A DNA stretch of 56,296 nt from an uncultured Gammaproteobacteria bacterium (GTDB lineage Bacteria; Patescibacteriota; Microgenomatia; PFEM01; CAZTHI01), in NCBI GenBank assembly GCA_964613135.1, contig CAZTHI010000001.1:14029-70324 (forward strand), given 5' to 3'. The position numbers and the translations under genes were made by a program. Below, piece after piece: positions 45,678 to 46,746 of the stretch. How positions within the stretch are numbered: the first letter of the stretch is position 1; each line of letters begins with the position of its first letter. The notes below the pieces were generated by a model that had not been told where the DNA came from, did no database searches, and saw nothing but the letters and a program-made list of their open reading frames with translations.

Positions 45678-46282
45678 TTCTGCCGAAATCGATTCGTAAT
45701 CTAACCGAGGCGTTTGAGAAGTTACCGGGCATTGGGCCCAAAACAGCCGCCAGGCTGACTTTTTACCTGCTGCATGTGCCCCAGGAACAGTTGGACGAAT
45801 TTGCGGGGGCGTTGTCAGAATTAAAGAAAAACACGGTTTTGTGTTCTCTGTGTTACAACGTGGCCGAAACCGATCCCTGTCCGATTTGTACCGACCAGAA
45901 CCGCGATAAAACGAAGATTTTAGTAGTGGAGCAGCCGCTGGACGTTTTGGCGATTGAAAAAACCGGCGATTATAAAGGAGCCTATCATGTTTTGCACGGC
46001 GCCATTTCGCCCTTAAACAATATCGGTCCCGACGAACTGTATATCAAGCAACTATTGGACCGTATCTCGTCTTACGTTTCGCCTATCACGGAAATTATCC
46101 TGGCGACCAATCCGAACATGGAGGGCGAGGCCACGGCGATGTATCTCGCGAAGCAATTGAAAATTGAAAATTGTAAATTGAAAATTACTCGTTTGGGTCA
46201 AGGCTTGCCGACGGGCGGGGATTTGGAATATGCCGATGAGTCCACCTTAAGCCGTGCGTTGGAGGGAAGACGAGAATGTTAA
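45674..46282 (+). CDS. recR: recombination protein RecR
   Basis: 'LPGIGPKTAARL', a C4 zinc finger, and the Toprim motif 'EGEATAMYL'. Confidence 0.9.
   Translation: MILPKSIRNLTEAFEKLPGIGPKTAARLTFYLLHVPQEQLDEFAGALSELKKNTVLCSLCYNVAETDPCPICTDQNRDKTKILVVEQPLDVLAIEKTGDYKGAYHVLHGAISPLNNIGPDELYIKQLLDRISSYVSPITEIILATNPNMEGEATAMYLAKQLKIENCKLKITRLGQGLPTGGDLEYADESTLSRALEGRREC
46156..46186. repeat. heptamer array ATTGAAA x4
   Basis: Encodes LKIENCKLKI. Confidence 0.9.
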
Positions 46283-46316
46283 AATTCGAAACCCGAAACT
46301 CGAAATCCGAAACAAA
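46282..46316. repeat. heptamer array AAANNCG x4-5 (left flank)
   Basis: aaattcgaaacccgaaactcgaaatccgaaacaaa. Confidence 0.9.
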
Positions 46317-46321
46317 CTTAA

Positions 46322-46687
46322 ATGACCAAAACTCAAAATTCGAAACGATTTGATCTGGAAGAAAGAACTTTAGCTTTTGCCAAGGCGATAAGGCTGTTTG
46401 TCGGGGAATTGCCAAGAACCACTTCTAATATTGAAGATATAAGCCAACTAATAAGGTCATCGGGATCGGTAGGGGCTAATTATATTGAAGCGAATGAATC
46501 TTTAAGCAAAAAAGATTTTATAATGAGAGTCAAAATTTGCCGCAAAGAGGCAAAAGAATCGTCTTATTGGTTGAAGTTGATAAACACGAGTGATAGTCTA
46601 AGACTTGGGAAAGAAAGAGACAATTTAATTAAAGAAACGATTGAGCTAATGAGTATTTTTGGTTCAATTATCCGCAAATTAGAATGA
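46322..46687 (+). CDS. four-helix-bundle protein (23S rRNA intervening-sequence protein family)
   Basis: 'QLIRSSGSVGANYIEANESLSKKDFIMRVKICRKEAKESSYWLKL' is the family signature. Confidence 0.8.
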   Translation: MTKTQNSKRFDLEERTLAFAKAIRLFVGELPRTTSNIEDISQLIRSSGSVGANYIEANESLSKKDFIMRVKICRKEAKESSYWLKLINTSDSLRLGKERDNLIKETIELMSIFGSIIRKLE

Positions 46688-46690
46688 TAT

Positions 46691-46746
46691 TTTGAAAATT
46701 TGAATTTCGAGATTGTTTCGAGTTTCGATATTCGAATTTCGAGTTT
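46691..46746. repeat. heptamer array CGANNTT x5 (right flank, inverted relative to the left)
   Basis: tttcgagattgtttcgagtttcgatattcgaatttcgagttt. Up to 12-13 nt are complementary to the left array. Confidence 0.9.

Follow-up and report, generated by a model that had tools for sequence, protein, structure and literature searches.

An intervening-sequence-type PF05635 gene enclosed by inverted heptamer arrays between recR and its conserved neighbour in a Microgenomatia genome

Intervening sequences (IVSs) of ribosomal RNA (rRNA) have been known since 1990, and we know of no account of their origin, their mobility or the role of their open reading frame (ORF). Besides Coxiella, ORF-bearing IVSs of 23S rRNA occur in Leptospira, Brucella and Xanthomonas, where they are located in helix 9, 25 or 45, and PF05635/TIGR02436 is among the commonest bacterial families of unknown function. 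Here, we describe a gene of this family located outside rRNA, in a 56,296-nt stretch of contig CAZTHI010000001.1 (assembly GCA_964613135.1), which we refer to as the window (G000:C1:14029-70324 in our numbering; genome G000 comprises 806 kb in 62 contigs, with 46% G+C, and is 93% complete). The gene lies between recR and a conserved neighbour, and together with two terminal inverted repeats of ~55-70 nt, each made of four to five 7-nt units, it constitutes a cassette of ~465 bp.

The IVS in the 23S rRNA of Coxiella burnetii is 428 nt long, has terminal inverted repeats forming a 28-bp stem, and carries an S23p (PF05635) ORF in the sense orientation (PMC4990558). Three tandem heptameric repeats (GACAGAT) and a degenerate fourth, the number of which varies between strains, stand directly before the ATG, and RNase III cuts the IVS at the first of them (PMC4990558). 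The homologue XCC0516 of Xanthomonas is a homopentameric toroid (PMC4990558). The window cassette resembles the 23S rRNA IVS in the PF05635/S23p ORF lying in sense inside an insert of ~430-500 nt, in the terminal inverted repeats and long stem, in the tandem heptamers directly before the start codon (GACAGAT x3-4 in Coxiella), in a poor or absent Shine-Dalgarno sequence, and in a patchy, horizontally transferred distribution (PMC4990558). It differs in being located between two protein genes and not in 23S helices, and excision by RNase III, shown for the rRNA IVS, would apply to the window cassette by likeness of design. In the literature that we searched, the Coxiella paper alone links heptameric repeats to an IVS, and we found no description of IVS heptamers as a second, inverted array, as a feature general to the family, or outside rRNA.

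Several other systems share single features with this locus. The accessory variability determinant (Avd; PDB entry 4DWL) of diversity-generating retroelements (DGRs) is a pentamer with affinity for nucleic acid and for a partner enzyme. The cassette protein is a homologous small, basic four-helix-bundle protein; unlike a DGR, however, the window locus has no reverse transcriptase, template repeat or variable gene, and has inverted heptamer arrays of its own. The relation of the Pfam family PF05635 to Avd, which it resembles, has been described (PMC10053308). As in miniature inverted-repeat transposable elements (MITEs) and hairpins of the repetitive extragenic palindrome/bacterial interspersed mosaic element (REP/BIME) type, the cassette is short, bounded by inverted repeats, located at a gene junction and accompanied by an ORF-less derivative (on contig G000:C46, see below), but its arms are tandem 7-nt arrays that differ between cassettes, its gene does not encode a transposase, and no target-site duplication was found. 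The trp RNA-binding attenuation protein (TRAP) forms a ring and recognises short, regularly spaced repeats on single-stranded RNA. Its likeness to the cassette is by analogy only: a homo-oligomeric ring is paired with an array that has as many evenly spaced units (at most 5) as the ring has subunits (5), whereas there is no homology, the cassette units are 7 nt long and variable in sequence, and their binding is putative. Finally, Mazel et al. reportedly described in 1990 the short tandemly repeated repetitive (STRR) heptanucleotide sequences of heterocystous cyanobacteria. The arrays described below are likewise 7-nt tandem repeats scattered through coding and non-coding DNA, and plasmids of Nostoc and Anabaena are the main plasmid carriers of PF05635.

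The cassette and its insertion at the recR junction

A sequence-only reading of this DNA had placed a 121-aa gene of the IVS family between recR and a hypothetical gene, outside any rRNA, and had proposed that flanking heptamer arrays form a stem that loops out the ORF. The family assignment was borne out by matches above the cut-offs to PF05635 ('23S_rRNA_IVP'; E=1.8e-12, 47.9 bits against a cut-off of 33.8) and to TIGR02436 ('four helix bundle protein'; E=2.8e-20, 72.6 bits against a cut-off of 24). PF05635 was the sole match of the protein in Pfam, and there were no matches in PADLOC or PHROG. The position outside rRNA was also confirmed, as no rRNA or other RNA family of Rfam was found at any of the eight PF05635 loci of the genome, and nothing at the arms; the cassette stands between recR and a protein gene and not at helix 9, 25 or 45 of 23S rRNA.

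The arms required some correction. The left array had been given as five AAANNCG units; the array is present, but with four such units (starting at 46282, 46289, 46296 and 46303) and a degenerate fifth, AAACAAA, and it ends 6 nt before the ATG. Tandem Repeats Finder (TRF) reported it at 46287-46313 with period 7. On the right side the five CGANNTT units were found as described, the first one offset by 11 nt, and TRF reported 46715-46746 with period 7 and 4.6 copies. With regard to the two 13-mers quoted as complementary, CGAAACTCGAAAT is located at 46294, but its exact complement ATTTCGAGTTTCG is absent from the right side, where the 12-mer TTTCGAGTTTCG (46716) and ATTTCGAGTTT (46736) are present instead. 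The predicted stem itself was well supported. The inverted arms 46282-46339 and 46689-46746 showed 71% complementarity over 58 nt, with a 24-nt core of 88%. Aligned locally, they scored 34; the 2000 shuffles stayed at or below 25, and none of 5000 windows drawn at random from this genome attained the score of the arms. In the RNA fold of 46270-46760 (-116.7 kcal/mol, z = -2.98) the 5' flank, the start codon and the first codons paired with the 3' flank in a long, interrupted stem. The cassette thus combines complementary termini, a long stem, an ORF in the loop and sense orientation, as in an IVS, with tandem heptameric repeats before the ORF start, as in Coxiella, and its terminal inverted repeats are also those expected of a transposon or MITE. 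Its only ORF encodes the 121-aa four-helix-bundle protein, and no transposase is identifiable.

To place the cassette in its genomic context, we compared the junction with that of related genomes. Orthologues of recR were found in 40 of 41 relatives, with identities of 48-81%. The orthologue of the downstream gene, recognised by the motif MPK..A.Q....GEE..KE..KQP...LEQLG, follows the recR stop at a distance of -1 to +31 nt in 9 relatives, which represent different families and even other families of the class. In the window, the gap between recR and the downstream gene is 474 nt and consists of exactly array, gene and array. Since recR abuts the downstream gene directly in the relatives, the ~470 bp at this junction are an insertion, and the cassette is a unit inserted into a tight junction within a co-directional string formed by recR, the cassette ORF and their neighbours. 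The TAA stop of recR (46280-46282) shares the first base of the left array. The sequence TTAAA is present at both edges of the insert (46279-46283 and 46750-46754), and removal of the insert with one TTAAA copy would leave TAA-agt-ATG, which is typical of the relatives. The TTAAA pair may be a target duplication, on the basis of this one site. A metagenome scan with RecR for a closely related empty or filled allele gave a best match of just 70% identity.

The recR/downstream-gene junction was also observed to be an insertion hot spot in the order (loci L010-L038). Its cargo in other lineages included an antisense 219-aa ORF, a 202-aa membrane protein, a DUF59-like ORF and small antisense ORFs (family f5). 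In the relative G038 the junction contains a hairpin of heptamer arrays without cargo, and in the relative G007 an array is located inside the N-terminus of the downstream gene.

Table 1. Coordinates of the cassette, its neighbours and two solo arrays in the window
Feature	Position	Strand	Remarks
Solo AAACTCG array in dnaX	44874..44905	+	in frame, x4.6, 92% match, period 7; hypervariable linker after conserved PQLPLELVVVEW motif
recR, upstream host gene	45674..46282	+	Pfam Toprim_4, RecR_HhH, RecR_C, RecR_ZnF
Solo AATTGAA x4.6 array in recR	46155..46186	+	loop between Toprim and C-terminal domains
Left arm	46282..46345	+	array AAATTCG-AAACCCG-AAACTCG-AAATCCG-AAACAAA (46282-46316); paired region crosses ATG (46322) into first ~8 codons
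Inserted segment	46283..46756	+	474 nt, recR stop to ATG of conserved downstream gene
IVP gene	46322..46687	+	121 aa, PF05635/TIGR02436 four-helix-bundle protein by family matches, pI 9.5
Right arm	46689..46746	+	reverse complement of left arm; CGANNTT starts 46708, 46719, 46726, 46733, 46740
Downstream host gene	46757..47257	+	166 aa (MPKQ...), without family match, conserved recR neighbour

Recurrence, spread and orientation of the cassette

Genome G000 contains eight PF05635 genes, all of them with flanking short-period arrays and seven with significant inverted arms, and each cassette has a unit of its own (TTAACGA, GAGAATT, GAAAATT, CCAAGTA, CGAAACT and so on). The eighth relative (178 aa, 'suffix-type'; G000:C20:867-1403) was observed to be flanked by 8-nt and not 7-nt arrays, of the AATTTGAC type, which occur in the same orientation on both sides besides the inverted form. 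PF05635 copies were found in 24 of 41 related genomes, with 1-14 copies each; the loci fetched from relatives showed the same architecture, and the copies from G038 and G015 each had a different unit. We then compared 107 PF05635 ORFs, drawn from many phyla, with 674 control ORFs of the same loci. The inverted-complement score between the flanks had a median of 36 for PF05635 and 16 for the controls, and 90 of the 107 PF05635 ORFs were above the 95th percentile of the controls. Lag 7 was the strongest periodicity in 76/107 upstream and 76/107 downstream flanks, compared with 114/674 and 138/674 for the controls. The left arm spanned a median of -54 to +21 around the ATG in 96 cassettes, and the right arm on average 0 to +72 after the stop. 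Among plasmids, on which the PF05635 genes are concentrated in Nostoc, Anabaena and Planktothrix, pNPUN01 of Nostoc punctiforme has inverted heptamer arms on all 3 of its copies (units GTCGGAG, GGTGTGG and CAGGAGT), which are located at ~1.6, 160 and 163 kb of the plasmid, and phages carry almost no homologues (2 partial matches). The gene-plus-arms architecture therefore recurs around PF05635 in many phyla. The core of the sequence-only reading, an IVS-like gene looped out by inverted heptamer arrays, holds for 7-8 of the 8 copies in this genome and for 90/107 overall, and agrees with the Coxiella design; the comparison of four-helix-bundle genes and their flanks that it had called for, in this genome and its relatives, showed that the arrays recur around most of the copies examined.

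The two arms of a cassette co-vary. When the arm units were typed by their counts of CGAAA and CTAAA (replacing an 'XAAA' classification that was too noisy), left arms of the CGAAA type in the close subfamily went with right arms of the TTTCG type in 32 cases to 0, and left arms of the CTAAA type with right arms of the TTTAG type in 15 cases to 2 (left/right correlation rho 0.78, p=1e-16), and along the protein tree the type switched between CGAAA and CTAAA no fewer than 6 times. In a diverse set of 32 cassettes, the right arm of the same cassette proved the best partner of the left arm in 19, where ~1 was expected by chance. The relation to the protein is looser: over 861 pairs there was no general correlation between protein identity and arm similarity, so that a strict protein-to-unit recognition code is not supported; only some pairs above 50% identity share units, and orthologous groups with a shared unit were found (TTAACGG in three families, TAGTCGT in two). 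What is constant across cassettes is the period of 7, the complementarity and the size, and not the sequence of the unit. Concerted evolution, and not a fixed recognition code, best accounts for a period that stays the same while the unit drifts; it could proceed by slippage or conversion among the units, together with template-switch correction between the quasi-palindromic arms.

We further examined the distribution of the subfamily to which the window copy belongs (N-terminus ..YDLEERT). One genome per species was scanned with a 5-sequence subfamily alignment as the query, since an alignment of the eight paralogues was too diverse. The scan returned >589 relatives, of which the best 80 are 57-69% identical in amino acids to the window protein and come from at least 19 phyla, including Planctomycetota, Bacteroidota, Myxococcota, Thermodesulfobacteriota, Verrucomicrobiota, Saccharimonadota, Nitrospirota, Chloroflexota and Omnitrophota. 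The paralogues within G000, in turn, are just 30-46% identical to the window copy; its nearest homologues are in Planctomycetota, Bacteroidota and other phyla, and not in the relatives. Phylum labels are intermixed on the protein tree, with no fewer than 38 changes, and this pattern indicates that the cassette has spread horizontally between phyla. Almost all of the best 80 copies have a left arm of the form (AAATNCG)x4-5-AAACAAA...ATG and a complementary right arm, the whole unit being 460-500 bp long, and the window cassette is close to this consensus. Within the subfamily, dN/dS is ~0.18 and synonymous sites are saturated (median pS 0.88), so the protein is functional and under purifying selection. 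The arm sequence itself is conserved in the subfamily although synonymous sites are saturated.

The cassette is almost always in the sense orientation of its flanking genes: its ORF was co-directional with both neighbours in 69 cases and opposite to both in 1. A promoter-like site facing the ORF was looked for in the left arm and none was found. Because the hairpin is symmetric and yet the sense bias is 69 to 1, expression of the ORF from host transcripts seems to matter. An exception to the sense orientation was observed inside the CRISPR adaptation module of two plasmids (L330, from Nostoc sp. TCL26-01, and L331, pANACY.01 of Anabaena cylindrica PCC 7122): a four-helix-bundle gene, surrounded by heptamer arrays of the AAAAGTA type, separates cas2 from cas1 and is encoded on the strand opposite to theirs.

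Heptamer arrays outside the cassettes

Solo arrays of the same period are abundant in G000. With a minimum length of 21 nt we counted 117 arrays of period 7, of which 90 lie within long ORFs; under strict settings there were 38 arrays of period 7 and 0 of periods 5, 6 and 8-12. The frequency of clean arrays (at least 90% match) rises to a mode at 32-33 nt, and none is longer than 34 nt (4.9 units); such a sharp ceiling suggests a ruler rather than free slippage. Among the 33 relatives for which 30 kb or more had been sampled, the density of arrays was correlated with PF05635 copies per Mb (rho 0.55, p=0.001), also after averaging by family (rho 0.56, p=0.003, n=26), and the mean was 10.5 arrays per 100 kb in genomes with PF05635 and 1.8 in those without. 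G010 is an exception, having 10 PF05635 copies and no array in 40 kb. Arrays and cassettes are thus linked at the level of the genome.

The sequence-only reading had noticed the solo array inside dnaX and had speculated that such arrays are footprints or targets of cassettes. The dnaX array is as described (period 7, 4.6 copies, 92% match), and its unit AAACTCG is also found in the cassette arms. The wider proposal was supported in part. In its favour are the density that tracks copy number, the shared units, the cargo-less hairpin in G038, and an ORF-less element of ~145 bp at G000:C46:2296-2440, whose left (AAATTCGAATATCGAAACTCGAAACTCGAAACAA) and right (TTTGTTTCGGATTTAGGATTTCGGATTTCGGATTT) arms match those of the window cassette in type and which looks like a MITE-like deletion derivative. 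The recR and dnaX arrays, on the other hand, are not footprints. The recR loop carries an array at the same site in five families (the window, L011, L013, L020 and L037; units AATTGAA, AATTTAA, AAATCTC and AAATTCG), and its length equals that in relatives with non-periodic sequence; as the loop length is unchanged, the array overwrites sequence and does not extend it. At the dnaX site, which is a hypervariable linker, there is no recognisable insertion. Excision scars were for these reasons rejected as an explanation of both arrays, which may instead be landing pads, half-elements or protein-binding sites. The commonest units of the solo arrays in this genome, GAAAATT (x19) and GAGAATT (x7), are arm units of resident cassettes.

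Further arrays were seen in the window. A perfect AATTGAA x4.6 array at 43514-43545 forms the last codons and the stop of a GatB/YqeY-like ORF (43084-43533; ...KELKIEN*). Six in-frame heptamer arrays are located in a minus-strand gene for a 737-aa O-antigen-ligase/TPR-like membrane protein (15191-16360), and three in topA, encoding topoisomerase I (25489-25590 and 26340-26370), where the pair 25489-25526 / 25566-25590 is partly complementary. Directly downstream of the conserved recR neighbour, at 47260-48169, we observed a Fic/DOC-family protein (PF02661, E=4e-15) and a small ORF, which resemble a toxin-antitoxin pair of the VbhA/Fic type.

Proposed mechanism, alternative explanations and significance

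We interpret the locus as one copy of a horizontally mobile, IVS-type selfish cassette that lives outside rRNA and rides on host transcripts, and we put the probability of this interpretation at roughly 0.7. It is based on the design shared with the Coxiella 23S IVS, including the heptamers and the cleavage of the stem by RNase III. The cassette would have no promoter of its own and would be transcribed by read-through from recR. The arms would pair in the read-through transcript into a long stem that buries the start codon, and RNase III, the gene for which is present in the genome (G000:C12:7572-7958), would cut this stem as in the 23S rRNA design and make the insertion tolerable to the host. 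For the pairing of the arms in read-through RNA and their cleavage by RNase III, an argument by analogy with rRNA, we see the chances as evenly balanced. The IVP protein would be made from the cassette RNA and act on the heptamer arrays for the maintenance or spread of the element.

The mode of this action may be suggested by the structure of the protein. The profile of the eight paralogues matched PDB entry 2RLD with E=6e-31 over 114 residues, and 2GSC weakly, both entries having 5 chains; by homology, IVP would be a basic pentameric toroid related to the Avd of DGRs, and its likeliest mode of binding would place each subunit on one 7-nt unit of a single strand. As single strand, five such units (~35 nt) measure 175-225 A and match the circumference of a toroid ~60 A across, and the ceiling of five units in the arrays points the same way. 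Binding of the toroid to the five units of an arm on a single strand, proposed from this stoichiometry and geometry, is nevertheless tentative and we lean against it. A broader proposal is that PF05635 pentamers and five-unit heptamer arrays are one protein-repeat system, in which every toroidal pentamer reads a single strand, five units of 7 nt at a time, and the cassettes seed and maintain genome-wide arrays of up to 35 nt; we consider this unlikely, and mention it for what it would imply (see below).

Several of our results weigh against the selfish-cassette interpretation. No transposase, recombinase or reverse transcriptase was found in association with the cassette, and no consistent target-site duplication was seen among ~60 other cassettes whose outer boundaries were aligned. 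Recent near-identical copies were not seen either, two copies in one metagenome-assembled genome being 75% identical. Related proteins may have unrelated units despite 53-62% amino-acid identity (at 62%, TAGGCAG and GGGTTTA), which weakens a strict reading of the sequence by the protein. Mismatches between the arms comprised 341 G:U and 326 A:C pairs, that is, no excess of G:U, which selection for a stem in sense RNA should leave; thus the complementarity of the arms may be kept at the level of DNA. Finally, the ORF of the Coxiella IVS may not be translated at all (PMC4990558).

The lack of a G:U excess also speaks for an element that acts in DNA, with arms that are transposon-like terminal inverted repeats made of protein-binding sites, IVP responsible for end-binding or synapsis, a host enzyme for the cutting, and the RNA stem as a by-product. 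Such an element would also agree with the arm sequence kept across phyla in the closest subfamily while synonymous sites are saturated, with the MITE-like derivative on G000:C46 that retains both arms, with cargo-less array hairpins in relatives, and with a density of solo arrays that tracks gene copy number. However, neither a target-site duplication nor a catalytic protein was found, 35 bp of duplex DNA would, by its geometry, hardly be accommodated around a small pentameric toroid, and a symmetric element does not by itself account for the sense bias unless its ORF needs expression from host transcripts. We regard a purely DNA-level element as possible but rather doubtful. The simplest reconciliation with the selfish-cassette interpretation is that the arms are kept alike in DNA, that the RNA stem makes a sense insertion tolerable, and that the ORF needs host transcription.

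The stem that buries the start codon and the location within a co-directional gene string could suggest a host element for RNA processing or attenuation inside the dnaX-ybaB-recR operon, with the gene merely inside it and nothing mobile; but the junction is empty in 9 relatives, the same gene and arms are found at unrelated junctions in at least 19 phyla, and the closest homologues belong to Planctomycetota, Bacteroidota and further phyla rather than to the relatives. The empty sites and the cross-phylum distribution largely refute such a host hairpin, which we consider very improbable. Even less credit can be given to the chance adjacency of two of the many 7-nt arrays of the genome to the gene. 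Although period-7 arrays are very common here, arrays flank every one of the eight PF05635 genes, the two arms of a pair complement each other, each pair has a unit of its own, the same pattern is seen in genomes with few solo arrays and in other phyla, and chance was ruled out by the comparison with control ORFs. The resemblance of PF05635 to Avd could, alternatively, point to a remnant or satellite of a DGR, with the protein as an Avd that partners a reverse transcriptase and the arrays in the role of template or target repeats. This explanation is just as hard to sustain, given that no RVT_1 match was found in the whole 806-kb, 93%-complete genome, that the arms show no adenine-specific differences, and that there are eight separate copies, each with its own arms.

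The locus is a typical member of a cassette family that, in the literature searched, is known from rRNA only. The rRNA IVS would then be a special case of a general cassette, a gene with inverted heptamer arrays. In at least 19 phyla this cassette has landed between ordinary genes; it is maintained in sense and is accompanied by 7-nt arrays throughout the genome. The PF05635 family gains a defined cis partner in these arrays, together with the hypothesis that a pentamer may correspond to five units, and the finding offers a possible explanation for the heptamer repeats, so far unexplained, of bacteria of the candidate phyla radiation and of cyanobacteria. If the protein-repeat system outlined above were real, the in-frame arrays of housekeeping genes (recR, dnaX, topA and the like) would belong to its array population, as perhaps would the classical STRR heptamers known from Nostoc and Anabaena, and array-rich genomes would be the product of resident IVP cassettes and not of ordinary slippage. 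As the same design is present on plasmid pNPUN01 of the cultured model Nostoc punctiforme PCC 73102, the cassette is experimentally tractable.

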